From Nanobdellota archaeon (GTDB lineage Archaea; Nanobdellota; Nanobdellia; Pacearchaeales; GW2011-AR1): a stretch of DNA of 55,093 bases. The notes below the pieces were generated by a model. The model had not been told where the DNA came from. It was given only the letters and a program-made list of their open reading frames with translations, and ran no database searches. The position numbers and the translations under genes are program-made. Positions 4,088 through 55,093 of this stretch are shown here, piece by piece (within the stretch, counting starts at the first letter, position 1; the number at the start of each line of letters is the position of its first letter). Location: NCBI GenBank assembly GCA_039714095.1, contig JBDLJZ010000001.1, forward strand, positions 1-55,093, given 5' to 3'.

Positions 4088-4164
4088 ATTCCAAACTGAT
4101 TTTTAATAAATAATTTCTAAGAATTAACAATAACTCATAAAAACACCTTATTCTATCCAGTTTT

Positions 4165-5706
4165 ATGTTAACAAAATCAAATTATCTCTTAGGATTGCAA
4201 TGCCCTAAATTATTATGGGTTTCTAAAAATAACAAAGAAAGAATTCCGGAATATGATGAGATGACTTTGGCGACTTTCAAGAATGGAGAAATAATTGGAG
4301 ATTTTGCAAAGAAACTATTTCCAGAAGGAATTGATTTATCTAAAGAAGGGTTTAAAGAAAACTTAGAAAAAACAAAAGAGTTATTAGAAAAAAGAGTTCC
4401 GTTATTTGAAGCAGGATTTTCAATTGATAATCTATATTCGAGAGCAGATGTTCTTTTGCCAGTTGAAAAAAACAAATGGGATATTTTAGAAGTTAAATCT
4501 GCGACAAAAGTAAAAGAGGTTAATATTCACGATGTTAGTTTTCAGAAATATGTTTATGAAAAAGCAGGATTGAAAATTAGGAATTGTTTTGTTATTCATA
4601 TAGATAATCAATATGCTAAAGAAGGAGAAATTGAGCCAGAGAAATTTTTTACCCAAAATGATATTACAGAAAAAGTTGAAGAGTTTGGTTTAGATATTGA
4701 AAAGAGAATTGAGAATATGTTAAAAATTATTAATTCAAAAGAAGAGCCGAAGTGTTCTATTGGAGTTCATTGTTCAGACCCGTTTGATTGTTCTATAACT
4801 GGAGAGTGCTGGAGTCACATTAAAGAGGGAAGTGTTTTTGAATTTTATAGAATGAGAAAAAAGAAAATATTTGAATTGTATGATTCTGGAATCAAACATT
4901 TGAATGAAGTTCCTGATTCAGTTAAATTAAACGATAAACAAAAAATACAGAGATTAATTGCAGAAAAAAAAGAAACGCATAAAGACAAAAAACAAATTAA
5001 ACATTTTTTAGACAATTTGAAATATCCACTTTATTATTTAGACTTTGAAACAATCAATCCAGCAATTCCAAAGTTTGAAGGAATGAAGCCTTACCAAAGA
5101 ATTCCTTTTCAATTTTCATTACATATTCAAGAAAAACCAAATGGAGAATTAAAGCACATTGGTTTTTTGGCAGAGGGAATAAACGACCCAAGACAAAAAT
5201 TCTTACAATCATTAAAAGATAACTTAGGAAAAGAAGGAGATATTTTAGTTTATAATCAAGCATTTGAAAAAGGAGTTTTGAGGGAATGCTGTAGGTCATT
5301 TCCAGAATTTCAAGAATGGTGTGAAAAAAATATTATGTCTAGAGTAAAAGATTTGTGGGATGTCTTTAAGGGATTTTGGTATTATGATTCTAAGCAAAAA
5401 GGTAGTGCTTCAATTAAAGCAATACTTCCATTATTTTCTGATTTGAGCCATAAAGATTTGGATATCACAAAAGGAGATATTGCAAGTTATGAATATGCAA
5501 GAGTTACTTATGGTTCTGATGATGAAATCTTGAAAGATGATGATTTGAAAGGTTTGAGTGAAGAAAATATTAAAAAATGGGTTGAGGATGAAAGAAAAAA
5601 AGTTCGAGATGCTTTGGAGAAATATTGCGAGTTGGATACTTTGGCAGAGGTTGAGATTGTTAAGGGTTTGGGGGAAAATATAAAAATGGAAGAAATTAGG
5701 AGATAA
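4165..5706 (+). CDS. DUF2779-type protein: N-terminal Cas4-like PD-(D/E)xK nuclease with a Cys cluster plus C-terminal DUF2779 (DxE exonuclease-like) region
   Basis: N-terminus SNYLLGLQCPKLLWV. Nuclease-like ADVLL...WDILEVKSATK. Four-Cys cluster CSIGVHCSDPFDCSITGECW. YYLDFETINPAIP follows. Confidence 0.7.
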   Translation: MLTKSNYLLGLQCPKLLWVSKNNKERIPEYDEMTLATFKNGEIIGDFAKKLFPEGIDLSKEGFKENLEKTKELLEKRVPLFEAGFSIDNLYSRADVLLPVEKNKWDILEVKSATKVKEVNIHDVSFQKYVYEKAGLKIRNCFVIHIDNQYAKEGEIEPEKFFTQNDITEKVEEFGLDIEKRIENMLKIINSKEEPKCSIGVHCSDPFDCSITGECWSHIKEGSVFEFYRMRKKKIFELYDSGIKHLNEVPDSVKLNDKQKIQRLIAEKKETHKDKKQIKHFLDNLKYPLYYLDFETINPAIPKFEGMKPYQRIPFQFSLHIQEKPNGELKHIGFLAEGINDPRQKFLQSLKDNLGKEGDILVYNQAFEKGVLRECCRSFPEFQEWCEKNIMSRVKDLWDVFKGFWYYDSKQKGSASIKAILPLFSDLSHKDLDITKGDIASYEYARVTYGSDDEILKDDDLKGLSEENIKKWVEDERKKVRDALEKYCELDTLAEVEIVKGLGENIKMEEIRR

Positions 5707-5707
5707 T

Positions 5708-6610
5708 ATGGCAGTTCCAGATTTTCAATCAATAATGCTCCCTTTATTGAAGTATCTACAAGATGAAAAAGAACATACATTAAGAGAAGTAATTGAACAT
5801 ATTTCTAAAGAATTTAATTTGACAGATGAAGAAAAAATGATATTATTACCTTCAGGGAAACAACCAACTATTGATAATCGTGTAGGTTGGGCAAGAACAT
5901 ATATGAAAAAAGCAGGGTTTATTCTTATGCCCAGTAGAGGATATATGAAAATTTCAAAAAAAGGTTTAGAAGTATTACAACAAAATCTTCCAAAAATTAA
6001 TATTGCATATTTAAAAAAATCTCCAGAATTTGTAGAATTTCAAACAATGAAGTCCGAGAAAGTAAAAGATTCTGCTAAAATTTCAGAAGATAATGAAGAT
6101 GAGACTCCCGATGAATTAATGGAAAGAGGAAACAAATTAATTAATTCTAATCTTATTCCAGATGTTCTTTCCGAATTAAGATCTTGTGATCCTTATTATT
6201 TTGAAAAGATTGTTGGGAATCTTTTAGAAACAATGGGATATGGAGATTTTGAAGTGACTAAAAAATCAAACGATGGAGGAATTGATGGCATTGTAAATCA
6301 AGATAAATTAGGCATAGATAAAATATTTTTTCAGGCAAAAAGATATGCGGAAAATAATTCTGTAACTGCTCATGAAGTTAGAGATTTTGTTGGAACTCTT
6401 GAATTAAGTGGTGTTAATAAGGGAATTTTCATTACTACTTCAAAATTCCCTTCCAACACTCAGGAATTGATACGTGGAGCACAAAAAAACATTATTTTAA
6501 TTAATGGGCAAAAACTTGCAGAATTAATGATTGAATATAATTTGGGAGTTTCTATTGAAAGAGTTTATAAAATTAAAAAGATAGATTCAGATTTTTTTAG
6601 AGAAGATTAA
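5708..6610 (+). CDS. mrr: Mrr-family type IV restriction endonuclease
   Basis: N-terminal Mrr_N-like winged helix (VPDFQSIMLPLLKYLQD). C-terminal catalytic core DGGIDGIV...IFFQAKRY. The start codon is 1 nt after the stop of the upstream gene. Confidence 0.85.
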   Translation: MAVPDFQSIMLPLLKYLQDEKEHTLREVIEHISKEFNLTDEEKMILLPSGKQPTIDNRVGWARTYMKKAGFILMPSRGYMKISKKGLEVLQQNLPKINIAYLKKSPEFVEFQTMKSEKVKDSAKISEDNEDETPDELMERGNKLINSNLIPDVLSELRSCDPYYFEKIVGNLLETMGYGDFEVTKKSNDGGIDGIVNQDKLGIDKIFFQAKRYAENNSVTAHEVRDFVGTLELSGVNKGIFITTSKFPSNTQELIRGAQKNIILINGQKLAELMIEYNLGVSIERVYKIKKIDSDFFRED

Positions 6611-6728
6611 AAATGAAAGTAATAATGCATAAATCTTTGGAGAAGTATTGAGATGGCTACGAAGGCAGAGGTTGAAATAGTAGATGGATTATATGAAATT
6701 ATAAAAACTTAATTTAATTAAAAATAGG

Positions 6729-7286
6729 ATGGTAGCATATAAAAATTTCTGGTCATTGAATACAGATGAAGCAGTTGTAACAGGAATTTTAAGAGAAAAG
6801 ACCCCTAAAGATATTGATGTTCTTATGCCAATTAATGCACAAATGAAAGACGTTGATTTAGTTTTAATGGATTTTACTAATAAAAAAAGCATCACAATTC
6901 AAGTCAAAGGAAGCAAGGCATACGAGCCAAAGAAAAAAGAAGTTGAGAAATATGGAGAAGGATCTAATGGTTGGTTTTTTCTAAAAAAAGATATTATACA
7001 TAGGTCAGAAGCAGATTACTTTATTTTTTTAGTTTATGTCATATCTGAAAACGAAAAAATTGGAAGAAGATTTATTGAACCCCATACAATAACAATCCCA
7101 ACAAAAAAATTACAAGAATTATGTTCAAAACACAAAAAACCTCATCCAGATAGATATAGTTTTTATTTCTGGGTAAACCCAAAAAAGAAAATTGCTTTTG
7201 ATTGGAGAGATGAGCAGTTTGATGTAACAGAGTATTTAGATAAGAATGGTTTTGAAAAATTGAATAAAGAATTTGAAAAAGAATAG
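6729..7286 (+). CDS. hypothetical protein with a possible PD-(D/E)xK-like nuclease fold
   Basis: ILRE...DVDLVLMD...ITIQVKGSK resembles an E/D...D...(E/Q)xK arrangement. Co-directional with the helicase/DUF2779/Mrr genes. Fold assignment is inference only. Confidence 0.35.
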   Translation: MVAYKNFWSLNTDEAVVTGILREKTPKDIDVLMPINAQMKDVDLVLMDFTNKKSITIQVKGSKAYEPKKKEVEKYGEGSNGWFFLKKDIIHRSEADYFIFLVYVISENEKIGRRFIEPHTITIPTKKLQELCSKHKKPHPDRYSFYFWVNPKKKIAFDWRDEQFDVTEYLDKNGFEKLNKEFEKE

Positions 7287-7302
7287 AAAATAATTCATAA
7301 AT

Positions 7303-8427
7303 CTATTTTCCGTTTTCTTCTATAAATTCTTCATAAGTTCCTGAAGGTCTGAAATCTATTGAATAAGTTTTTGAGTCCAATCTTTCTAAAACTACCGAGT
7401 CAAATCCTATCTCTTGCAATTTTTCATAAGTTAATAATTCTTTTTCTTTTAGACCTAATACATTTCTCAATAACCATTTTCCAAGGTCTGCATTGTGTTT
7501 ACTCATTAACGCTTTTGAGCCATCTTGACACACTTTTGCGGATAATATTTGTCCATCGGGCAATATAAGATTAAATGGCTTATCTCTTCCGAGAAAAAAT
7601 CCAGGAAATCTTTTATGAATCCACGTTGGAATTGGGACATAGATTTCATCAGGATTTCTTTTTCTTCCTCCTGCATTCCATTGATTAAGTCCACTTTTTG
7701 GATATACAATTTTGCCTTTTGAAGTAATGGAATAAAGGGGCAATACAACATGAACTTTCAATTTTGCCTCAGTGTAATATGTTTTCTTTATATCTAAAAA
7801 TTTCTCCTCTATGACTTCAAAAGGATCATCAAGAATTTTTACAGGAACTTTAAGAAGAGTGTTTTTTGTATGAAATCTTTTGTATAATGTGCTTTTGGTT
7901 AAATTAAAAGAATATTCATTTTTAGAGTCTTTAAAAGAAATAGTATTATTGCTTGATTTAAGATGTGTTATTTTATCAATATCAATTAAATCCATAGGGC
8001 ATTCAAAAGTTGAAATTTTACCTTCATCTCTAACAATGCAATGGTATATCATTTCATTTAATCCATAAATTCTCTTTGTTGCTTCTATCCTTTTATTTCT
8101 TAACTCTGCAACTTTTTTAATTGCATCTTCTTTGGAGAGATTTCTAAATTGTAAATTATCTCTATTGAATTCTGCCACCTTTTGCAATGTTTTCCCATTT
8201 CCATTAACAAAAGTTTTTATTCCAACCCCAACAGTTCCAAGTGATGCGTCCGCAGAAACATCTGAACGAGAAAGATTCTTTGCAGAGAAAGATTTACAAA
8301 AAAGATTTTCCGTAACTCTGTAATTTAAAAAAGGTATTGTGCTTTCAGAAAAAAGCCCAGTCAAAGACCCGAGAATTTTTAACATCTTTTCATAATAAAG
8401 ATGTTTTGAAGACTTTTTATTCACCAT
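7303..8427 (-). CDS. putative type II restriction endonuclease (partner of the adjacent m5C methyltransferase)
   Basis: 374-aa ORF starting 1 nt downstream of the stop of the co-oriented cytosine-5 methyltransferase. The call rests on gene context. I recognise no catalytic motif. Confidence 0.55.
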   Translation of the reverse strand: MVNKKSSKHLYYEKMLKILGSLTGLFSESTIPFLNYRVTENLFCKSFSAKNLSRSDVSADASLGTVGVGIKTFVNGNGKTLQKVAEFNRDNLQFRNLSKEDAIKKVAELRNKRIEATKRIYGLNEMIYHCIVRDEGKISTFECPMDLIDIDKITHLKSSNNTISFKDSKNEYSFNLTKSTLYKRFHTKNTLLKVPVKILDDPFEVIEEKFLDIKKTYYTEAKLKVHVVLPLYSITSKGKIVYPKSGLNQWNAGGRKRNPDEIYVPIPTWIHKRFPGFFLGRDKPFNLILPDGQILSAKVCQDGSKALMSKHNADLGKWLLRNVLGLKEKELLTYEKLQEIGFDSVVLERLDSKTYSIDFRPSGTYEEFIEENGK

Positions 8428-14637: not shown

Positions 14638-14794
14638 CGCCCCAACCGGGAGTTGAACCCGGGTTTCTTGCGTTCTGCACATTTTCACCTTCTCTCGCGT
14701 TAGCGAGCATATTTAGGAAGGTTGACGGTCAAGGAAACCTATGTTTCCTTACCTGCACGACAGGCAAGTGTCTTAGCCGTTGGACAATTGAGGC
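14638..14794 (-). tRNA. tRNA-Asp(GUC) with an 85-nt intron at the canonical 37/38 position
   Basis: Hand-folded. Acceptor GCCUCAA/UUGGGGC, discriminator G. D arm GUCC..AGAC with GG in the loop. Anticodon stem CUUGC/GCAAG, loop CU-GUC-G|intron|C. T arm CCGGG-UUCAACU-CCCGG. Exons 14794-14758 and 14672-14638. The BHB has a central helix CUGU/GCAG flanked by 3-nt bulges. Confidence 0.85.
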
Positions 14795-36738: not shown

Positions 36739-36884
36739 TCCACCCACCCAGATTCGAACTGGGGATCTCCCGGGTACTGCTATGTAACCGAGCTGACTTT
36801 TAGGGTTTCATTTAATTTCCAAATGGAATATCCGCCTTAGTAATAAACTACAGCCAGGCGCTCTAACCGCTGAGCTATGGGTGG
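36739..36884 (-). tRNA. tRNA-Tyr(GUA) with a 73-nt intron at position 37/38
   Basis: Hand-folded. Acceptor CCACCCA/UGGGUGG with the archaeal/eukaryal Tyr identity pair C1-G72, discriminator A. D arm GCUC-AGCGGUUA-GAGC. Anticodon stem CCUGG/CCGGG, loop CU-GUA-G|intron|C. T arm CCCAG-UUCGAAU-CUGGG. Exons 36884-36848 and 36774-36739. Confidence 0.85.
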
Positions 36885-40725: not shown

Positions 40726-43700
40726 ATGAAAAAAATAAATACCAAAGAAATAATCCTAATATCAATCATTATATTAGCAATTCCTTTGTTTTTAACTATG
40801 GTTAAAGCTGGTACTGATGGTCCCCCACAATTTACTGTTAATCCTAATGATAGCCCAGATCCAGTAGAGGAAGGAAATACTGTCACATTTACAGCTACTG
40901 CAGAAGATCCTAAAAGTGATGACTGGTATTTAGCAATATGTAAGACTAATGAGATTACTGATGGCACTCCTCCAACTTGTAATGGTGGAGCCTATTGTGT
41001 ATCAGGTGCTACTGCTCATGCTGCGCAAGCTAGTTGTGGTTGGACATCAGATGTTTCTGGAGCTTGGTATGGTTTTCCTTGTGATGGTCAGGAGGGTTGT
41101 GGCACAATGGTTAATACAAATAGTCCAATAACTGTTACTTCAAATACTGCTCCTGATATAACTGGCACTGTTTCTAATGATGGGCCTAAAGACGAAGCCC
41201 AAACTATTACTTTTACAGGCGCTTGTACAGATGCAGATGGCGGAGACCTTTTTCATTTAGTTGTATGTCAAGGAGGAACAACTTGTAATGATGCTACTAG
41301 TGGGGCAGATTTAATATGCAAAGGAACTTCTGCAACAGATACAACACCAAGTTGTAGTTATGTTACGACATCTGGTGACGTTGGTATCAACACAGGAGAT
41401 ATAGCTACTTGTTGCGACGACAGCGGTGATTGCGATGCAACTACAGTAAGTGTAAATGACTGGACAGTGAATGATATAACTCCACCAGGATTTGAAGATG
41501 CACAAGTAAATGAAAGCATAATCGGTTTGAACCAGTATGCGCGATTTAAAATTAATGTTACAGATTCTTCATCAAATATTAGTTATACTAATGGAACAAT
41601 AGAAGGAACAACATACAGTTTCAGCGACGAGGACGGGCAAACAGGCAAAACAGGATTCTGGTATTATGATTGGCAATGTACTTCAAGTAATTCAGCAGTT
41701 GATTTTACTTATGCAGGGGCTAATGACACTGTCGGAAATTGGAACTCAACTACAATAACAGGAATTAATACAGAATGTGATGCTACTGCTCCAAGTTTAA
41801 GTAATGAAGGAGCAAATGAAACAACAATTAATGAAAATTCATATTTTTGTTTAAACATAACTGTAAGTGATACAGAAGGAAATTTAGATGCAGTTTATGC
41901 AGAAGTTTGGGACACTTCATCTTGGGCAAATTATACAATGTCAGACGCTGGTTCGACATCTTGTGATGGAGGTTCTGCAGATGGTATTTATGGTTTAGAA
42001 TTTCAGGGAACTTCTCAAGGAATTTGGAATTTCAGTAGAGCATATGCAAATGATAGCGTAAATAATTTAAACACTTACGACTTTACTGATTTAACTATAA
42101 ATGTAACAGCTCCCTCAGATTCTGAATATCCACAATTTTCTAACTTCCAAGAATATCTCTCAAATAATTCTGATTATTCTTATGGACAAACATATCAATT
42201 TAATACAACTGTGACCAACATAAATGGAACTGTTTTTTTAGAATTTAATGGAACAAATTATTCTGCATTAAATGACACTACAGATAATTTTTATGTGGAT
42301 TTTAGTTCTTTATCTGCAGGAACTTATTCTTATTATTGGGGGGGTTATGGAAATGGAACAAGCGAGCTTTACAATATTTCAGGAATAAGAAGTTATGTTG
42401 TAAAAAAAATAAATCCAACAGGAAGTCTTACAAATACAGACGCGTGGTCAATAACTTATCCAGAAGAAGTTACAATAGGTTTAAGTGAATCAAATAGTGG
42501 AGACACAGATGTGACTTATAAAATTTATAGAGACAACGTAGACAAAGGAACAGGCGAAACAATAACTCTTGGATACGGAACTTATGACTATATTTTAAAT
42601 ACAACAGGTGGAGCAAATTATACAGCCAATGAAAGCATAGAGTCACAAACATTCACAGTTAATCAGAATACTGGGGCATGTAGTGTTTTATTTAATGAAA
42701 CCTCTCCTATAAATTATTCGTCCACATTCAAAGTCTGGACAAACTGTAATTCTGATTTTACATTATATAGAAATGGCACAGCAATAAGCAACAACTCTGT
42801 TCAAGATTTAGCTGCAGGAGGTTATAATTTTACAGTCATAAGAACAGACAAATCAAATTATTCTATAATTTCTGATGAGCAAATTTTCACAGTTCAAAAA
42901 GCAGAAGGATTAATTTATACTTATATTAATAATCAAAGAAGTAATCAATCTATACTGGTAAATAATGAAAAATGGTTAAATGCAACACTTATTACAGGTG
43001 TTGGAGATATTACATTATATTATAACGATACAATAATAAATCAAGGAACAAGCCCACTTTCAAATCTAACAAATTTCGCAGATGAAGGAGTTTTCAATAT
43101 TACTGGAATTTATTTGGGCAATGAAAATTATACATCTGCATCAGAAACTTGGTGGGCTACTGTAAGTTCAGATTCAGCACCAACAATAAATCTTGTTTAT
43201 CCTCAAAATATAAATTATAATACTAATGTAAGTGAATTAAATTATACTGTTTCAGATGATATAGCTTTGGATATTTGTTGGTATTCAACAAATAGTGGTA
43301 TAACAAATACTACAATAACTTGTGGAAATAATGTAACTAATTTAAATTCTATAGAAGGTTCTAACACTTGGACTGTTTGGGCGAATGATTCAATTGGACA
43401 GGAAAGTTCAGATAGTGCAACTTTTTTTAAAGATACTATTTATCCAACAGTAACAAGTTTAACAGAATCTCCTTCAGACCCCACTACATATTCTTTAGGA
43501 GCAACTTATGAATTTAATGCCACAATTACAGACACAAATTTAGAAACAGTTTTAATTGAATTTGATGGAACAAATTATACGCCTTCAAATTTAGGAGATG
43601 TTTACAACTTTTCTATTTCAGATTTATCTGCAGGAGTTTATAATTATAAATGGTTTGTTAACGACACAACTAATAATATTAATCTTACAGAGATTCAAAC

Positions 43701-46700
43701 ATATACAATAAATAATGCAACAGGAGATGTGACCCTATTAATAAATGGTTCTGCATCAGACCAAACAATAACCTATGGAATTCAAACAAATGCAAGTTCA
43801 ACAACTTCATACGGAAGTGTTACAATTTATAGAAATGGTATTGATGTTACAGGAGAAAACAATAATTTTGTGACTTTGGGAGTTGGATATTATAATTATA
43901 CATCTGTTTCTTCAGGAGACCAAAATCATAGTTCAATTTCAGTAACGAGATTTGTAAATATAACAAGAGCAAACAGCGAGGTAAATTTAAGTTTAAATGG
44001 AACAGAAGAAAATATCACAATTACACAAGATAGTTCTATATTATTAAATGGAACTTTAATAACAGGAGATTTAGGAGCAACATTAAAATTATACAATGAT
44101 GGAATCCTTATCAATCAAGGAACAACCGAAGTAAGCAATCAAACCACATTCAATACAGTTGGTTTTTTTAATATAACTGTATATTATATAGAAAGTCAAA
44201 ATTATACTTATTCGTCTGAAACTTTTTGGGTTAATGTAACAGAAGCTCCTGACTTAACTAATCCGAGTGTAACTTTATTAACCGAAAATCCAACAGACCC
44301 TACAAATTATTCACCTGGAGCAACTTATGAATTTAATGTAACAATTACTGATAACAGAGAAATTGATTTAGTGTTTATTGAATTTGATGGAACAAATTAT
44401 ACACCAAGTAATTTAAGTGATGTTTATAATTTTACAATTTCTGGTCTATCTGTAGGAACTTATTCTTATTACTGGTTCGCAAATGATACTTCTGGAAATG
44501 TAAATAATACACAAAATAGAACTTATACAATAAATCAGAAAATACCTTCTTTAAATTTAACAATCACTCCTTTGCAATCAGAAACTTATGGTATAGAAAC
44601 AATAGCGACGGGAAGCGATTGTCCTGCTGAACTAACTTGCAATTTATATAGAGAACATATTTTGGTTGATAACTCAGACACGCAAACACTGGGGGTTGCT
44701 GTTTATAATTACACTTACAACACAACAGGGAATGTAAATTATTCTGCTACTTCAATAAGCAAGTTGCTGACTATCACGCAGGCTTCAAGTTCTGTTTACA
44801 CTTATTTAGATAATTCAAGGAGTAATAAATCAATAAATAATAATACTGCAATTTGGTTAAATGGAACTTTAGTGACAGGTTCGGGAAATATTAAAATTTA
44901 TAATAATGGGACATTAATCAATTCAGGAACTTCTCTTCTTTCAAATTATACTTTATTTGACCAAGTTGGATTATATAATATTACAACTATTTATGAAGGA
45001 AATGAAAATTATACTTCTTCGTCTGAAACTTGGTGGGTTGATGTTCTTGCAGTTGATTTAATTAATCCAAATGTCGTTATAATTTATCCTCAAAATATTT
45101 CTTATAATTCAATTCAAACAGAATTAAATTACTCTGTTTTTGATAATCAAGATTTGGATTCTTGTTGGTATTCAATTGACAAAGGAATTACAAACAATAC
45201 TATTAATTGTGGGGAGAATATAACTGGATTAAATTCAAATCAAGGAAGCAATACTTGGATAGTGTGGGCAAATGACACAAATGAAAATGAAAATTCAAGT
45301 TCAATTGTATTTTTTGTTGATAGTATTTTTCCGACAATAGATTTTGTTGCTCCTACAAAAACAAGTAACTCACCAACTATTGAAAATTTGATTGAAATAA
45401 ATATAAGTGCAAATGATACGAATTTAGATACTATTGTTATTAGGTTATATAATTCTACACACGATTTAATAAAAGCCAATTTCTCAATAAACAGTTTATT
45501 TTTTATTAATTATACTGGATTACCTGCAGGAATTTATTATTACAATGCCACTGTAAATGATACTTTAAATAATCAAAACTCAACTGAAACAAGAGCAATT
45601 AATTTAATTCTTCCCTCGCTAACAATCTATAAACCAAAAAACAAAACTTATGTTGCAAACACTTCTCTTTTATTAGATTATTCTGCAACCAATACAGATA
45701 CAGTATGGTATAATATTGATTCTGTACAAAATATAACTATAGATTCTGACACATATTTTAATACTTCTGGGGGAAGCCACACACTTTATCTTTATGCAAA
45801 TAACAGCAACGGAGTTATATCAAAAAATGTAACTTTCTTTATCAATTTAACTCAATTTGAAATAGGCTATAGTGAATGGGAAAGCTCTTACAAAGGCAAC
45901 TCAACAAATTTTAATGAATATCCTTTTGATGAAATACAAAATTTAAGCAATGTTATTTTAGAAAATACTTTACATGGGAAAATACTTTTTAATGAAGCTA
46001 TTAATTTAACTGACGATGAAAACCCTGCTGATAACCAAATAGATATTGATAGTTATATAAATATTTCAGATAATAAAATAGAAATAAATTCAACAGGTTT
46101 ACCTAATTTTAATAAATCTGCAACACTTTATTTTTATAATTTAACTTTTTCTAATCCAAGGATTTTAAGAGATGGAGATATTTGTCCTTCAACAATCTGT
46201 ACACTAAATAATTATTTAAATGGAAATTTAGATTTTAATGTAACCCATTTTACAATTTATTCTACAGAAGAAACTCCTTTGACACAAGTGGTTGTTTCTA
46301 CTGGAGGGGGTGGCGGAAGAGCAGGGGATGGAGGAGTTTCTATTAAAGATTATGAATGTTTCAATGATAGTGAATGCAAAGACAAAGATGAAGTGTGTTT
46401 AAATCATTTGTGTGTAAAACTATTTGACATAAAAATAATTGATTTTGAATCTCCAGCAAAATTAGGAGAATTTTTTGATTTTACTTATTTTATAAAAGGT
46501 ATGGCAAATATTAGTGGGGATGTTGAAATTAATTTTTGGATTGGAGATGGAGAAGAAATTTTAACCTCAGGTTCTGATGTGATTTATTTAGGAAATTTTG
46601 AAGAAAAAACAGAAACCACAAAAATATTTTTACCTAAAAGTGTTAAATCAGGAGTTTATGAATTTTTTGTTGAAGTATATCATGAAAGATATAAAGCAAG

Positions 46701-47304
46701 ATCCCATCGGACTATTGAAATAGAGGTAGAAGGCGGAATTGCAAAGATAATCTCTATTGAAGATAAAAGCATTAAGAATTATATAATTTTCATCTTGATT
46801 TGTGTAATTATTTTTAGTTTAATTACATTTTATTTTATAAGAAAAAATAAAAGAGCAAAAATTACTTCAGAAGAATTAATTGAGGATATTAAAAAACAAG
46901 ATGAACAGAAACCAAAAATAAAATTAGTGTATCCAAAACAAAAATATAAACCTGAAGAAAAAGGAAGTTTACAAATATCAAAGAAAAAATTTATAGAACA
47001 AAAATATAAATTAGAAAAAAAAGAAAATTTACAAATTCCTCAAAAGAAATTTGCAGAACAAATTGTTAAAAGAGTGAAAAAAGAAATTCCTTCGCAACCT
47101 GAAAAAATCCAAGAAATAAATAATAAAAAACAAAAGAAAATAATTCCTCAAATTAAAAAAGAATCTACAAATACAATTGAGAATACAGAAAAACGAACTT
47201 TTCTAAGAAGTCCAATAAAAAGGATTGTAAAAAAATTATCAAGAAAAAAAAGAAATATAGATGATATGAAAGAAATGTTTGAAGAAAAACCAAAAGTAGA
47301 ATAA
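40726..47304 (+). CDS. giant (2192 aa) repeat-rich surface protein with a C-terminal TM anchor and Lys-rich tail
   Basis: Signal/TM N-terminus. Module LEFNGTNYS/IEFDGTNYTPSNL appears three times. Module YPQNI.YN...ELNY.V.D...D.CWYS...GITN.TI.CG.N.T.LNS..GSNTW.VWAND appears twice. Very dense N-x-S/T sequons. TM segment YIIFILICVIIFSLITFYFI, then a K-rich tail. Confidence 0.9.
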   Translation: MKKINTKEIILISIIILAIPLFLTMVKAGTDGPPQFTVNPNDSPDPVEEGNTVTFTATAEDPKSDDWYLAICKTNEITDGTPPTCNGGAYCVSGATAHAAQASCGWTSDVSGAWYGFPCDGQEGCGTMVNTNSPITVTSNTAPDITGTVSNDGPKDEAQTITFTGACTDADGGDLFHLVVCQGGTTCNDATSGADLICKGTSATDTTPSCSYVTTSGDVGINTGDIATCCDDSGDCDATTVSVNDWTVNDITPPGFEDAQVNESIIGLNQYARFKINVTDSSSNISYTNGTIEGTTYSFSDEDGQTGKTGFWYYDWQCTSSNSAVDFTYAGANDTVGNWNSTTITGINTECDATAPSLSNEGANETTINENSYFCLNITVSDTEGNLDAVYAEVWDTSSWANYTMSDAGSTSCDGGSADGIYGLEFQGTSQGIWNFSRAYANDSVNNLNTYDFTDLTINVTAPSDSEYPQFSNFQEYLSNNSDYSYGQTYQFNTTVTNINGTVFLEFNGTNYSALNDTTDNFYVDFSSLSAGTYSYYWGGYGNGTSELYNISGIRSYVVKKINPTGSLTNTDAWSITYPEEVTIGLSESNSGDTDVTYKIYRDNVDKGTGETITLGYGTYDYILNTTGGANYTANESIESQTFTVNQNTGACSVLFNETSPINYSSTFKVWTNCNSDFTLYRNGTAISNNSVQDLAAGGYNFTVIRTDKSNYSIISDEQIFTVQKAEGLIYTYINNQRSNQSILVNNEKWLNATLITGVGDITLYYNDTIINQGTSPLSNLTNFADEGVFNITGIYLGNENYTSASETWWATVSSDSAPTINLVYPQNINYNTNVSELNYTVSDDIALDICWYSTNSGITNTTITCGNNVTNLNSIEGSNTWTVWANDSIGQESSDSATFFKDTIYPTVTSLTESPSDPTTYSLGATYEFNATITDTNLETVLIEFDGTNYTPSNLGDVYNFSISDLSAGVYNYKWFVNDTTNNINLTEIQTYTINNATGDVTLLINGSASDQTITYGIQTNASSTTSYGSVTIYRNGIDVTGENNNFVTLGVGYYNYTSVSSGDQNHSSISVTRFVNITRANSEVNLSLNGTEENITITQDSSILLNGTLITGDLGATLKLYNDGILINQGTTEVSNQTTFNTVGFFNITVYYIESQNYTYSSETFWVNVTEAPDLTNPSVTLLTENPTDPTNYSPGATYEFNVTITDNREIDLVFIEFDGTNYTPSNLSDVYNFTISGLSVGTYSYYWFANDTSGNVNNTQNRTYTINQKIPSLNLTITPLQSETYGIETIATGSDCPAELTCNLYREHILVDNSDTQTLGVAVYNYTYNTTGNVNYSATSISKLLTITQASSSVYTYLDNSRSNKSINNNTAIWLNGTLVTGSGNIKIYNNGTLINSGTSLLSNYTLFDQVGLYNITTIYEGNENYTSSSETWWVDVLAVDLINPNVVIIYPQNISYNSIQTELNYSVFDNQDLDSCWYSIDKGITNNTINCGENITGLNSNQGSNTWIVWANDTNENENSSSIVFFVDSIFPTIDFVAPTKTSNSPTIENLIEINISANDTNLDTIVIRLYNSTHDLIKANFSINSLFFINYTGLPAGIYYYNATVNDTLNNQNSTETRAINLILPSLTIYKPKNKTYVANTSLLLDYSATNTDTVWYNIDSVQNITIDSDTYFNTSGGSHTLYLYANNSNGVISKNVTFFINLTQFEIGYSEWESSYKGNSTNFNEYPFDEIQNLSNVILENTLHGKILFNEAINLTDDENPADNQIDIDSYINISDNKIEINSTGLPNFNKSATLYFYNLTFSNPRILRDGDICPSTICTLNNYLNGNLDFNVTHFTIYSTEETPLTQVVVSTGGGGGRAGDGGVSIKDYECFNDSECKDKDEVCLNHLCVKLFDIKIIDFESPAKLGEFFDFTYFIKGMANISGDVEINFWIGDGEEILTSGSDVIYLGNFEEKTETTKIFLPKSVKSGVYEFFVEVYHERYKARSHRTIEIEVEGGIAKIISIEDKSIKNYIIFILICVIIFSLITFYFIRKNKRAKITSEELIEDIKKQDEQKPKIKLVYPKQKYKPEEKGSLQISKKKFIEQKYKLEKKENLQIPQKKFAEQIVKRVKKEIPSQPEKIQEINNKKQKKIIPQIKKESTNTIENTEKRTFLRSPIKRIVKKLSRKKRNIDDMKEMFEEKPKVE

Positions 47305-50530: not shown

Positions 50531-50713
50531 ATGGAATTAACAACCTTGCCAAAAAATATTGTAGAATTAAAACAAATAATATTAGAAACAATTAATGAAG
50601 TTAGTGAAAGATTTATCCCCTTTATTTCCCAAGACGAACAAGAAGAAATAGAAAAAATTCATGGGAAAAATTTAGAAGAAGAATATAATAAAGAAGATTA
50701 TATGAAAATATAA
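50531..50713 (+). CDS. putative antitoxin of a type II TA pair
   Basis: 60-aa acidic ORF ending 1 nt before the RelE/ParE-like gene. Confidence 0.45.
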   Translation: MELTTLPKNIVELKQIILETINEVSERFIPFISQDEQEEIEKIHGKNLEEEYNKEDYMKI

Positions 50714-50714
50714 A

Positions 50715-50969
50715 ATGTATGAAATTGAAATAAAAAAGAAAATTATTAAATTCATAAATAATCTTTCTAATTCTCAAATAATTTGGTCAAAAATTAAGAT
50801 ATTGAAACTTTTCAAGAGCGATAAAAAATTAAATTTAGATATGGAAAAAATGAGAGGAAAATATAAAAATTTATATCGTATAAGAATTGGAGAAATAAGA
50901 TTAATTTTTGAAGTTTTATCAGAAAAAATTATAATTAAATCCGCAGATTATAGAGGGAAAGTATATTAG
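50715..50969 (+). CDS. RelE/ParE-family toxin
   Basis: KNLYRIRIGEIRLIFEV...IIIKSADYRGKVY matches the RelE/ParE C-terminal pattern (yRiRvGdyRiif...i.hR...Y). Confidence 0.7.
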   Translation: MYEIEIKKKIIKFINNLSNSQIIWSKIKILKLFKSDKKLNLDMEKMRGKYKNLYRIRIGEIRLIFEVLSEKIIIKSADYRGKVY

Positions 50970-51799: not shown

Positions 51800-52606
51800 T
51801 TAAAGATTATCTAATGGTGATTTAATGTTTTGTAGTTCTTTGTTTGATACTTGTGTGTATATTTGAGTTGTAGATAAATCACTATGTCCAAGAAGTTTTT
51901 GTATATGTCTTATATCTGTTCCAGATTCTAAAAGATGTGTTGCAAAAGAGTGCCGAAGCATATGGGGAGTTAATTTAATTCCAACTTTTTCCCCTAATTT
52001 GTCTAAAACTTTTTGAATAGATTTTTTTGTGTATTTTCCATTTCTGCCTTCAAAAATATACTCAGTTGAAAAATTATAATTACTATAATATTTTAATAAA
52101 TCTAATTTTAAATTTTCAGAAATTATAGTTATTCTATCTTTTTTACCTTTACCTTTTTTTACATAAATTGTATTTCTCTCAAAATCAATATCTTTTCTTT
52201 TCAAATCAACTAATTCTTGAAGTCGAAGACCAGAAGAATAAAGAATTTTAACAATAACTTTATGTTTAATGTTTTCGCAAGATTCAATTATTTCTTTTAT
52301 TTTCCCTTTTGAAATTATTTTTGGAAGAGATTTTTCTTTCTTTTTTATTGGAACTTCTTCAAAATTAAATGGTTGATGTAAAATTTCTCTAAAGAAAAAA
52401 CTAAGAGATGCATACTGAAGTCTCATTGAGTTAATAGATAAGTTTAGTGTTAACAAATAACACTTAACAGAATCTTTTGATGGATTAAGTCTACTTTTCT
52501 CTAAAAAAGACAAATATCTAGAAACATTATAAGTATAGGATTTAATTGTTTGCTTAGAATATCCCTTTAAAATACAATAATTTGTTAATTCTTTAATATA
52601 ATCCAT
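51800..52606 (-). CDS. xerA: XerA-like tyrosine recombinase
   Basis: SGLRLQELVDLKRKDIDF...VKKGKGKKDR, TPHMLRHSFATHLLESGTDIRHIQKLLGHSDLSTTQIYTQV. Close to archaeal XerA over the catalytic region. It lacks the extra segment typical of integron integrases. Confidence 0.85.
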   Translation of the reverse strand: MDYIKELTNYCILKGYSKQTIKSYTYNVSRYLSFLEKSRLNPSKDSVKCYLLTLNLSINSMRLQYASLSFFFREILHQPFNFEEVPIKKKEKSLPKIISKGKIKEIIESCENIKHKVIVKILYSSGLRLQELVDLKRKDIDFERNTIYVKKGKGKKDRITIISENLKLDLLKYYSNYNFSTEYIFEGRNGKYTKKSIQKVLDKLGEKVGIKLTPHMLRHSFATHLLESGTDIRHIQKLLGHSDLSTTQIYTQVSNKELQNIKSPLDNL

Positions 52607-52707
52607 ATTAGAACTTTTAAATTAAAATATATTTAAATCTATGTTAAAACTTTTCAGTTTAATATTAAATCTACTTTTCAAGTAGACTTAATACATGTTA
52701 TATGACA

Positions 52708-52813
52708 TATTTTGGTGGCAATTTGAATTTTAAAATGAAAAAACTTTTATTTCCCTTTATTTTATTAAATTTTGCTTCACTATCGTTACGCAAAATGGGG
52801 GCGAAAAAATTTT
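52708..52813. repeat. upstream arm of a long inverted repeat flanking the aldehyde dehydrogenase gene
   Basis: Three perfect 17-nt blocks: tattttggtggcaattt (52708-24), aaaaacttttatttccc (52739-55), gggggcgaaaaaatttt (52797-813). Each recurs as its reverse complement downstream of the gene. Confidence 0.85.
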
Positions 52814-52838
52814 AAATACTAATGTAATTACTATTACT

Positions 52839-54215
52839 ATGGCAAAATTAATCTCAACAAATCCCGCAAAAAACTACGAAGTAGTCGGCGAAATAGAAAT
52901 CTCAACAGACAAAGATATTTCTGAAAAAGTATATCGCGCTAGTCAGACAAAAACCATTTGGAAAGAAATGGGGATAAAAAAAAGAATTGAACTACTAAAA
53001 CCCATATATCAAGACTTTCAAGATAACGCTGACGAAATTGCCATGTTAGCAACAAAAGAGACTGGTAGAGCAATTACGGAAAGTAGGGCAATTGTTAGTG
53101 GTCATATAAATAAAATCAAATGGTTTTTAGATAATGCAGAATCAGCACTTTCTGATGAAATAACGCATGAAGATGATGGATCAATTCATAAAATTATGTA
53201 TGAACCTATTGGTACAGCAGCGATAATAACTCCTTGGAATCATCCGTTCGGAATGTTTGTTTGGGGAGTAATTCCCAATCTTCTCGCTGGGAACACAGTC
53301 GTTTTTAAAATTTCAGAAGAGTGTCCGCTGGTTGGAAAGTTAATTGAAGACATTATGCTTTCCCACAGTCTTCCTGAAGGAGTTTTTTCCGAGGTTTACG
53401 GAGATGGAGAAGTTGGCTGGAAGTTAGCACAAGAAAATATTGACTTGATCTGGTTTACTGGAAGCACCAAAGTCGGACAACAATTATTCAAATTGGCAGG
53501 AGAAAAATTTATCAAGGCAATTTTAGAACTAGGTGGTTCCAATCCATGTATTGTTTTCGAGGATGTAGATATTGAAAAAATTGTTGATAAAATTTACGCT
53601 AAAAGATTTAAGCTTTGTGGGCAAACATGCGACGCCCTAAAAAGATTAATAGTTCATGAATCAATCGCTGGTAAATTAATTGAGGCTTTGAAGCAAAAAA
53701 TTGAATCGCAGAAAGTTGGTAATTCTGAGAACCCAAAAACTGACGTGGGAAGTTTAGTTGCTAAAAGACAACTTGATTTATTGGAAAGTCAGATGAAAGA
53801 CGCGCTTGATAAAGGAGCTAAAATTATTACTGGAGGAAGTTCGCCTAAAGATGTGGACGGTGCTTTCTACTTACCTACCTTGCTTACAAATATAAACAAA
53901 GAAATGCAAGTTTGGAACGAGGAAGTTTTTGGTCCAGTATTGCCAGTAATTACTTTTAAAACAGAAGCAGAAGCCTTATCGCTTGCCAATGATACAATTT
54001 ATGGGCTAGGTTCAATTATTTTTACCAAAGATATTGAACGAGCCAAGAAAATTGCTTCAAAATTAAATTCTGGAACAGTTGAGATTAATAGTGCGATTCA
54101 CTGGGTATCCTGCAATCCATTCGGAGGTTATAAAAAATCAGGAATGGGTAGAGAGCATGGCGTTATTGGATTTAGAGAACTTTGCCAAATCAAAGTTGTT
54201 TCAATGGAAAAATAA
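52839..54215 (+). CDS. NAD(P)-dependent aldehyde dehydrogenase
   Basis: ITPWNHP, FTGSTKVG, ELGGSNP, catalytic Cys in CGQTCDA, EEVFGPV, GGYKKSGMGRE. Confidence 0.95.
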   Translation: MAKLISTNPAKNYEVVGEIEISTDKDISEKVYRASQTKTIWKEMGIKKRIELLKPIYQDFQDNADEIAMLATKETGRAITESRAIVSGHINKIKWFLDNAESALSDEITHEDDGSIHKIMYEPIGTAAIITPWNHPFGMFVWGVIPNLLAGNTVVFKISEECPLVGKLIEDIMLSHSLPEGVFSEVYGDGEVGWKLAQENIDLIWFTGSTKVGQQLFKLAGEKFIKAILELGGSNPCIVFEDVDIEKIVDKIYAKRFKLCGQTCDALKRLIVHESIAGKLIEALKQKIESQKVGNSENPKTDVGSLVAKRQLDLLESQMKDALDKGAKIITGGSSPKDVDGAFYLPTLLTNINKEMQVWNEEVFGPVLPVITFKTEAEALSLANDTIYGLGSIIFTKDIERAKKIASKLNSGTVEINSAIHWVSCNPFGGYKKSGMGREHGVIGFRELCQIKVVSMEK

Positions 54216-54218
54216 GGA

Positions 54219-54242
54219 GTCGCTATCGCGACAAAATTTTTT
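54219..54242 (+). terminator. hairpin plus T-run directly after the ALDH stop
   Basis: GUCGC-UAUC-GCGAC at 54219-54232, followed by AAAAUUUUUU. Confidence 0.4.
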
Positions 54243-54321
54243 CGCCCCCTAATAATGTGTTCGCTATCGCTCACGGGAAATAAAAGTTTTTAGACAATAA
54301 TGAGAAATTGCCACCAAAATA
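54233..54321. repeat. downstream arm of the inverted repeat flanking the aldehyde dehydrogenase gene
   Basis: Reverse complements of the three 17-nt blocks lie at 54233-49, 54275-91 and 54305-21, in mirror order. Confidence 0.85.
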
Positions 54322-54377
54322 CGCTAAAGCCACGCTGCGCTCTCACTTCACTTCGTTCCGTTCGGGTCATATAACAA

Positions 54378-54772
54378 GGGATAAAAGGAAAATTGCTCGG
54401 CTCGCAATTTTCCCAAATTTTCTTCGCTACGCTACGAAAACTTCTTTTATCCCTGATGTTAGTTTCAATTTTTGAGAATGCCTACAAGTTAGAGTAAAGA
54501 CAAAGAAATAGGAAATAATATTTTTTCTCCCACCCAATAGGGGAGACGCGCGCAGTTTTCGAATTCTCGAAAACTAGATAGCAAAAACTTCGTTTTTGGA
54601 TTTATATGGGGATTTCCTTAGTCCTTCGGACAGATAGTCTCGGCTTCGCCTCGCAGAAAACTTCTTTTATTCGACCAACAAAAACCACAAAGAAATTAAA
54701 ATTTCTTCTAACAAAGGATAAAGGGCTTCGCCCAAATTTTTCCGATTTTATATTTGGTAGGCTGTCGGAAAA
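54378..54772. repeat. cluster of degenerate, hairpin-forming repeat units in a locally GC-richer noncoding stretch
   Basis: GGGAUAAAA(54378-86)/UUUUAUCCC(54445-53) closes a unit containing a 10-bp hairpin GGAAAAUUGC/GCAAUUUUCC. Related units occur near 54597-54672 and 54714-54810. Further hairpins lie at 54526-46, 54554-75, 54582-98, 54621-31, 54642-50, 54723-33 and 54738-72. Confidence 0.75.
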
Positions 54773-54824
54773 CGATTTGAAAACAAAAAGCTTTTTATAC
54801 TATCTCTTGATTATATATGTTAAG

Positions 54825-55093
54825 ATGAAAACAAAAATAATCTTGCCAATTTTTTTCTTAATGATTTTATCCTTATCTATTTTTGTTTCTGCTGAAAATT
54901 CATCAATTTGTTCTGACAGTGATGGGGGGTTAAATTATGATGTAAAAGGTGAAGCTAATAAAGAAGGTTTCGGAAGCACAGAAGATTTTTGTGTAAATGA
55001 TATTAAATTATCTGAAGCTCTTTGTAATAACGATGGCAATCCTGCAAATGCTCAATATGATTGTCCAAATGGTTGTTCTAATGGAGCCTGTAT
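54825..55093 (+). CDS. secreted Cys-rich protein, 5' part only (runs off the window)
   Basis: Hand translation gives MKTKIILPIFFLMILSLSIFVSAENSSICSDSDGGLNYDVKGEANKEGFGSTEDFCVNDIKLSEALCNNDGNPANAQYDCPNGCSNGAC. It has a signal peptide and regularly spaced Cys. The frame is open to the window end. Confidence 0.6.
   Translation, partial: MKTKIILPIFFLMILSLSIFVSAENSSICSDSDGGLNYDVKGEANKEGFGSTEDFCVNDIKLSEALCNNDGNPANAQYDCPNGCSNGAC

Follow-up and report, generated by a model that had tools for sequence, protein, structure and literature searches.

In canonical integrons, the attC recombination sites carry an unpaired spacer of about 5 nucleotides (nt) between the R and L boxes, together with extrahelical bases in the L box, while the apparent bracketing of genes by Vibrio cholerae repeats (VCRs) arises from the similarity of neighbouring attC sites. 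Two further known elements are pdif sites, which are 28-bp sites for XerC/D, and mobile insertion cassettes (MICs), the ends of which are shared terminal inverted repeats (TIRs) derived from insertion sequences and accompanied by target duplications. Archaeal integrons and the transfer of cassettes between domains were described by Ghaly et al. in 2022, with integrases recognised by their IntI-specific domain and most arrays having none nearby (PMC9668308); since integron finders require that domain, most archaeal arrays are scored as integrase-less (PMC9668308). Integron integrases are thought to have been derived from Xer-like enzymes by gain of the I2 helix, which enables them to read folded single-stranded attC sites (PMC7790495). 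In our full-text literature search no paper connected attC arrays with XerA-type recombinases, and integron arrays of the Candidate Phyla Radiation (CPR) or DPANN were described by Ghaly et al. (PMC9668308) alone. The present analysis concerns an aldehyde dehydrogenase (ALDH) gene enclosed by long inverted repeats in a 55,093-nt stretch of DNA from a Nanobdellota archaeon, a member of the DPANN (contig JBDLJZ010000001.1 of assembly GCA_039714095.1, positions 1 to 55,093 of the forward strand; hereafter the window). This gene is very probably an integron-type cassette, the first of an integron-like platform situated at an attI-like site by the recombinase gene xerA.

The locus and its relatives (hereafter the window family) resemble integrons in having a tyrosine recombinase gene divergent from mostly co-oriented, promoter-poor open reading frames (ORFs) of mixed guanine plus cytosine (G+C) content, imperfect palindromes between these ORFs bounded by ...AAC and GTT..., a fixed insertion site by the recombinase with its breakpoint at GTT, and cassettes common to both domains. 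They differ in that the window recombinase lacks the additional IntI-specific domain (I2 helix), that R-L spacing differs in the attC-like sites, which have no bulges in the L stem, a conserved inner CCCAAATT and a G+C-rich module before R'', and that the cassettes possess long end-to-end inverted repeats extending beyond the R boxes. Four integron features are thus present (attC-like sites, arrays, an attI-like site at G|TT, and mobile cassettes) and the defining IntI domain is absent, so that the system is integron-like rather than a canonical integron. The kind of system is known; a Xer-type recombinase at the head of the array and repeats at the cassette ends are, as far as searched, unreported.

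With the phage CTX-phi and the integrative mobile elements exploiting Xer (IMEX), which use host XerCD at dif (PMC7790495), the locus shares a Xer-type enzyme that has no I2, a link between the insertion site and the Xer system and, to go by the predicted fold of the ALDH cassette, a single-stranded substrate with a long hairpin imitating duplex DNA. IMEX are, however, phages or islands rather than arrays of single-gene cassettes, and the ALDH cassette crossover lies beside, not within, a dif-like palindrome; catalysis by XerA is here something that we infer. Like the VCRs of the superintegron, the window family has palindromic repeats between cassettes and genes that each seem bracketed by inverted sequence, but its arms are cassette-specific and lie outside the attC-like site. 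The pdif modules of Acinetobacter plasmids and the MICs of Bacillus likewise place single cargo genes, moved in trans, between inverted recombinase or transposase sites, yet neither has structured attC-like sites or recombinase-headed arrays. Family-wide TIRs and a target duplication, by which TIR transposons and MICs are recognised, are both absent from the ALDH unit.

Organisation of the ALDH cassette

The features of the cassette, all on the plus strand, are as follows.

52698..54458: ALDH gene cassette of 1761 nt; each border is a G|TT crossover position, one in the attI-like site and the other in the cassette's own attC-like site
52696..52813: left arm, comprising block 4 (R' core, GTTATATGAC), block 1, block 2, a TATC-loop hairpin insert and block 3
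52839..54215: ALDH coding sequence (CDS), the cassette cargo; 458 aa; PF00171
54219..54232: terminator-like hairpin, GTCGC-TATC-GCGAC, followed by a T-run
54233..54321: right arm, comprising blocks 3', 2' and 1' mirrored, and a separate TATC-loop hairpin insert
54322..54365: G+C-rich module before R'', containing ACGCTGCGCT
54366..54464: attC-like site, comprising R'' (GTCATATAAC), a 12-bp L''/L' stem, two inner hairpins around CCCAAATT, and R' GTTAGTT at 54458-54464

Three pairs of 17-nt blocks, each pair perfectly reverse-complementary, enclose the gene in mirror order (52708-52724/54305-54321, 52739-52755/54275-54291 and 52797-52813/54233-54249), with spacers of unequal length in the left and right arms (14 versus 13 nt, and 41 versus 25 nt). 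The left arm stops 25 nt before the ATG at 52839 and the right arm starts 17 nt past the stop codon (CDS end 54215). In the positions of the 17-nt blocks and the distances to the CDS the initial annotation, which had proposed a mobile or invertible unit, was accurate, save that it missed a fourth block of 11 nt, TGTTATATGAC, at 52696-52706 and 54366-54376, by which the arms are longer outward; a 44-nt G+C-rich stretch separates block 1' from block 4' on the right side only. The longest inverted match obtained in 2000 shuffles of both flanks was 16 nt, encountered once, and that among 2000 random pairs of window segments was 14 nt, figures that the blocks around the ALDH gene far exceed. The window contains no further copies of the repeat blocks and, as previously remarked, no target-site duplication at the ALDH unit. 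The suspected G+C enrichment of the gene was also borne out (0.36-0.37 compared with approximately 0.28 for the whole window). No NCBIfam equivalog was matched at cut-off by the ALDH protein.

Two kinds of element account for the gaps between the ALDH blocks. The first consists of small TATC-loop hairpins with G+C stems, GCTATCGC occurring twice in the window and both times in the arms; the second is the G+C-rich module before R'', with ACGYTGCRCT, and this module (54322..54365) is a common part of the attC regions in this cassette family rather than an indel specific to ALDH. Modules with this motif lie some 30 nt before R'', on the 5' side only, at many attC-like sites (in the window and in loci L140, L006, L134, L136, L139, L144, L148 and L149, the L-numbers designating other loci that were compared with the window), and represent a putative hairpin branch or accessory binding site. 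TATC-loop hairpins with variable G+C stems (..GC-TATC-GC..) occur at window positions 52778-52793, 54219-54232 and 54260-54273 and in the L140 spacers; they are scattered through cassette arms, one even lying inside an attC loop, and look like independent miniature insertions or protein-binding hairpins.

attC-like sites and cassette arrays

Alignment of 15 sites defined a consensus comprising an invariant TAAC, a 12-bp stem, a hairpin, CCCAAATT, another hairpin, the second half of the stem and an invariant GTTA, with compensatory changes on both sides in 15 of the 25 predicted pairs. The combination of TAAC...GTTA, an L stem and inner hairpins is the anatomy of integron attC sites (R''-L''...L'-R'). 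Since the ALDH unit ends in this anatomy, block 4 (GTTATATGAC / GTCATATAAC) corresponds to the R'/R'' core-site pair of the ALDH cassette. A covariance model (R1) built from the 15 sites detected 39 sites in the fetched loci, and its strong match in the window (54368-54464; 88.3 bits, E 1e-20) stands directly past the right arm.

The arrays to which such sites belong are exemplified by L140, in which 13 co-oriented ORFs ranging from 19 to 64% G+C have an attC-like element in every spacer, and ALDH with its arms is cassette 8. Between four and seven attC-like sites were present in each of L141, L144, L148 and L149. In L147, a 3.7-kb unit (4144-8000) with two N6/N4 methyltransferases and an AlwI-type restriction enzyme lies between the attI-like site and the first attC match, apparently a restriction-modification system carried as a cassette.

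Distribution and mobility of the cassette

The ALDH cassette is mobile between arrays and between domains. Relatives of its product with 62-93% protein identity are common in Patescibacteria (CPR) and DPANN, and contigs encoding relatives with 90% and 83% identity have left and right arms of identical type in quite different surroundings. Besides the window, the unit with its arms was found in L140, L006 and L002-L005; in L006 it adjoins dnaA, dnaN and rnpA, which identifies a bacterial chromosome. A metagenome pattern search located the arms beside ALDH genes with a mere 47-55% protein identity (L127, L139, L140). The search for other genes with the same terminal blocks, suggested by the initial annotation, was rewarded with cysteine synthase (cysK) cassettes: blocks 4, 1 and 2 flank this gene on both sides in L128, L129, L131-L134 and L136-L138 (metagenome pattern search), and also accompany it in L009 and L064 (genome scan). 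The genome scan covered species-representative genomes with block 1 alone as the query and yielded mostly chance matches, only L009, L064 and L094 being real among the matches listed; a scan of a viral collection gave no match. The occurrence of blocks 4, 1 and 2 in both ALDH and cysK cassettes suggests either a sequence-specific constraint or frequent recombination.

Relative to L002, the ALDH CDS of the window is 95-100% identical in its middle (53292-53650) and approximately 77-85% identical in its 3' third (53712-54130), a mosaic pattern indicating homologous recombination between alleles of the ALDH cassette. The earlier suggestion that the repeats bound an invertible segment was not upheld, there being no inverted form among the loci with both arms, or with the left arm plus the gene (window, L001-L007, L139, L140), in all of which the ATG adjoins the left-arm type.

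Three other configurations were recorded at these loci. In L002 (4416-4440), and also in L003-L005, the attC core is cleanly gone, ...GTCATATAACAAGGG being joined straight to TTAGTTTCAAT, and the deletion extends exactly to the G|TT position, so that two cassettes are fused. In L007 (3010-4570), an ALDH relative of 77% identity keeps the left arm and has GTTAGTT directly after its stop codon, with no right arm or attC, and upstream of it is an N run preceded by a duplicate of the 22 nt normally located before the ATG, a layout that suggests a mis-scaffold or population heterogeneity. In L006 (8209-9384), an IS4-type DDE transposase (DUF4372 plus DDE_Tnp_1) lies between two oppositely oriented groups of attC-like sites.

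The recombinase gene and its attI-like site

The platform is headed by the tyrosine recombinase gene that had been noted to the left of the ALDH unit and was confirmed there.

51800..52606, minus strand: XerA-type tyrosine recombinase of 268 aa; Pfam Phage_int_SAM_4 and Phage_integrase; candidate integrase
52664..52699, plus strand: attI-like site, comprising the near-palindrome ATTAAATCTACTT-TTC-AAGTAGACTTAAT, then ACAT-GTT

Comparison with NCBIfam gave the archaeal model NF040815 (recomb_XerA_Arch) as the best match for the recombinase at 234.9 bits (cut-off 220), whereas the integron-integrase model TIGR02249 scored 196.8 (cut-off 265), split in two stretches; the protein is colinear with the XerA of Pyrococcus abyssi (4a8e), recombinase length being 268-275 aa. 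The start codon lies 90 nt from G52697, and the point of insertion coincides with G52697|T52698 or immediately precedes it.

In the window and six fetched homologous xerA loci, together representing seven DPANN genomes, 35 nt ending in AAGTAGAnnTAATAnATGTT are kept upstream of xerA in all seven, and the sequences diverge straight after GTT in every case, the conserved attI-like site being some 55-90 nt upstream of the gene. Matches to the attC-like model were obtained in six of these seven loci and without exception lie 5' of xerA on the opposite strand; L146 is an xerA locus with no detectable attC. The same position is occupied by other cassettes in a relative: comparison of the locus in related genomes, as had been advised, revealed that L141, which is syntenic and has a XerA 89% identical to that of the window, holds other cassettes in place of ALDH at the insertion position. 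The initial annotation would have abandoned a mobile unit had relatives carried ALDH at the same locus without the repeats, had neither orientation nor occupancy varied and had the blocks occurred nowhere else; all of this is contradicted by the finding of ALDH plus arms in unrelated contexts, of the blocks around cysK, and of other genes in the syntenic relative.

The same head-of-array geometry recurs in the CPR bacterial loci L128 and L064, whose recombinases belong to the same type and share 39% identity with that of the window. The order in L128 is recombinase, 110 nt, GTTATGT, cassette 1, attC and cysK cassette; in L064, cysK is the first cassette. The near-palindrome adjoining xerA is dif-like (11-bp arms and a 7-bp centre), and the breakpoint lies approximately 5 nt outside it, not at its centre. 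A motif of 13-16 nt, ATTAAGTCTACTT, has three copies (window 52484-52499, 52664-52679 and 52680-52692), two of which form the attI-like near-palindrome, while the third, a direct copy, lies 180 nt away within the coding region of xerA; they may serve as binding sites for the recombinase or as an operator for autoregulation.

End repeats across the cassette family

End repeats are a general property of these cassettes. Every cassette of L140, L128, L141 and other loci has an inverted repeat peculiar to it, which pairs its first bases with its last and often reaches the start and stop codons, as exemplified by a perfect 24-nt pair, ATTATTCGGGCAAATTTTATTTTT / AAAAATAAAATTTGCCCGAATAAT. End-to-end complementarity exceeded the 95th percentile of mismatched cassette pairs in 20 of 25 cassettes (median score 18 versus 9), and the arm sequences differ among cassettes, also within the same array. 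When the junction of the excised ALDH circle (54216-54458 plus 52698-52838) was folded with DNA parameters, a single long hairpin was predicted at -88 kcal/mol for the top strand and -94 kcal/mol for the bottom strand, compared with -52 (top) and -55 kcal/mol (bottom) for the same attC with its array neighbour. The mismatch types within the arms (24 versus 37 wobble-compatible against 158 others) exhibited no usable strand bias for top strand, bottom strand or RNA.

Proposed mechanism

On the proposed scheme, which follows integron cassettes in general, the bases following G|TT at the 5' border belong to the cassette and match its own R'' as complements, and blocks 1-3 are a cassette-specific continuation of the R'/R'' complementarity up to the start and stop codons. 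The arms, 1.4 kb apart in the array, would in the excised circle abut the attC-like site and lengthen its stem by 3 x 17 + 11 bp, resulting in one hairpin of approximately 380 nt. The XerA-type enzyme is probably the recombinase that inserts and excises the cassettes. By analogy with the CTX-phi hairpin used by XerCD, the long near-perfect stem would perhaps make the folded single strand sufficiently duplex-like for a Xer-type enzyme lacking the I2 helix, a suggestion that we advance tentatively. The wider proposition, that a DPANN/CPR XerA-type recombinase without the I2 helix, possibly the housekeeping dimer resolvase, is the array integrase and that the end repeats compensate for the missing domain, is put forward as a reasonable conjecture that falls somewhat short of probable. 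The repeats themselves may grow by fold-back template switching until coding sequence is reached.

Several observations weigh against this scheme. Compared with VchIntIA (2a3v), the recombinase is short of approximately 43 residues (IntI 173-245 versus query 166-195) corresponding to the IntI-specific domain with its I2 helix; moreover, homologues 70-89% identical are widespread in DPANN and syntenic, as is expected of a housekeeping dimer resolvase. The window offers one strong attC-like site only before the contig ends, and the consensus geometry of these sites appears non-canonical, the R and L boxes being separated by 1 versus 3-4 unpaired nt and the 12-bp L stem being continuous, without bulges. 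Clear end repeats are missing from 5 of the 25 cassettes, and arm mismatches in blocks 2 and 3 between loci (L002, L006) are uncompensated, which argues against strict selection for pairing. Finally, the left and right arms of the window and L140 cassettes are 95% and 90% identical, respectively, at a nucleotide identity of 63% between their CDSs; arm identity so far above that of the CDS points to a sequence-specific constraint or recombination, and is left unexplained by a pure stem model.

Alternative explanations

The array might be real and XerA not its integrase: cassettes might merely target the site of xerA, in an IMEX-like use of the host dimer-resolution site that happens to adjoin the gene, or be moved by an enzyme encoded elsewhere, the arrays then being clusters of attC sites served in trans by a canonical IntI or by incoming DNA. 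Several of the properties set out above accord with such a view, namely a XerA-type enzyme without the I2-bearing domain, a highly conserved, syntenic and core-gene-like recombinase, the dif-like near-palindrome right beside the insertion point, the xerA locus L146 with no detectable attC, and the fact that most reported archaeal arrays have no neighbouring IntI (PMC9668308). Set against these are the recurrence of a divergent gene, a fixed distance and a breakpoint after GTT in six of seven archaeal loci and in two bacterial loci with recombinases only 39% identical, and a crossover located some 5 nt outside the palindrome rather than centrally; in the IMEX version, moreover, XerA would still be the catalyst. 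We consider this alternative unlikely, with perhaps the same modest chance as the next.

That next alternative accepts the cassette and denies the arms a function: in cassettes that are circular or single-stranded, the template would switch by fold-back at the foot of the attC stem, so that one end is copied onto the other until selected coding sequence is reached. Arms that differ in sequence in every cassette and halt at ORF borders are in keeping with this, as are blocks that are perfect with intervening stretches resembling later insertions of small hairpins. An arm identity of 90-95% at a CDS identity of 63%, and the sharing of blocks 4, 1 and 2 by ALDH and cysK cassettes, are nevertheless left unexplained, and the functionless reading is rather improbable.

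An action of the arms on RNA is a little less likely again. Pairing of the 5' and 3' untranslated regions would protect or insulate the mRNA and terminate transcription, so that the cassette is expressed independently of its neighbours and of the host. The extension of the arms exactly to start and stop codons in several cassettes, the terminator-like hairpin and T-run at the start of the right arm, and an arm sequence far more conserved than the CDS would all suit such a role, and the long-range pairing envisaged in the initial annotation is indeed physically possible, since the two flanks can pair as three helices; the explanation does not require it, however, and nothing supports it specifically. 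Neither covariation nor a G-U pattern was apparent, existing mismatches were uncompensated and their types without strand bias, and no Rfam family matched either the arms or the structured region downstream (gathering scores for the whole window; E up to 5 for 52550-55093). The complementarity begins within the recombination core sites, which points to a unit at the level of DNA. The isolated fold of the 615-nt downstream region was uninformative (z = -1.1), and a sigma-70 promoter scan returned sites no more numerous than in shuffles.

Very improbable readings are a non-autonomous TIR transposon (MIC) moved in trans by a transposase and an on/off switch in which the neighbouring recombinase inverts the segment. 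A single gene is indeed surrounded by long terminal inverted repeats, and L006 has an IS4-type transposase approximately 0.8 kb away from its ALDH unit. Target duplication is nevertheless absent, cassettes within one array have different arms, the ends of the unit coincide with attC/attI core sites, and no inverted form was seen in the window, L001-L007, L139 or L140. Hence only part of the original proposal of a TIR-bounded mobile cassette stands: the unit is mobile and linked to the neighbouring tyrosine recombinase, but its ends are not transposon TIRs, because each cassette has its own end repeats and its borders are core sites (G|TT ... AAC) beside an attC-like site.

Three further readings were set aside. 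A transposon inserted in a palindromic target (GTTATATAAC, with ATAT duplicated) was rejected, the 10-mers concerned being R'/R'' boxes of attC-like sites in arrays. Treatment of the structured element of approximately 100 nt as a miniature inverted-repeat transposable element or hammerhead-like ribozyme was rejected on account of the same boxes of arrayed attC-like sites and of the failure to match Rfam, and ribozyme, riboswitch and intron readings of the arms and the downstream region were dropped for want of any Rfam match.

Wider implications

If XerA is the catalyst, the scenario for the origin of integrons would become testable with natural enzymes, and the known range of integron-like systems would be widened. 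A direct route of gene traffic would also be established between two ultra-small symbiont groups belonging to different domains, as the ALDH cassette is common to both with nearly identical non-coding ends. A XerA-type integrase without I2 would, if true, amount to a living 'Xer-stage' integron and account for many of the archaeal arrays now scored as integrase-less. The cassette-end repeats provide a simple sequence signature that could help to define cassette borders, and as they stop exactly at ORF borders they bear on the question of how cassettes are made.

Other features of the window

Two features lie between the ALDH cassette and the end of the contig.

54705..54816, plus strand: weak, degenerate attC-like stretch; 7.6 bits, E 1.6 with filters off; not significant
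54827..55093, plus strand: next ORF, start only; signal-peptide-like N-terminus; runs off the contig

With its 7.6 bits, the stretch at 54705..54816 was accordingly not confirmed as a second attC of the window; the ORF starting at 54827 is possibly a further cassette.

The window is archaeal, as is evident from the aIF2-gamma and the thermosome subunit that it encodes and from two tRNA genes with probable long introns. These tRNA genes (14638-14794 and 36739-36884; 146-157 nt) matched the Rfam tRNA model and were not reported by ARAGORN, and long archaeal introns are presumed in both. Gene order is alike in the window and L141, with xerA, a PP-loop ATPase, a PD-(D/E)XK nuclease and aIF2-gamma in succession. 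Between the nuclease and PP-loop genes, two adjacent short ORFs of 60 and 84 aa (50531-50969) look, from their sequence, like a toxin-antitoxin pair. A 2192-aa ORF at 40726-47304 is almost devoid of Pfam matches (weak DUF4625), and within it, at 41001-42000, is the only other G+C spike of the window (0.39).

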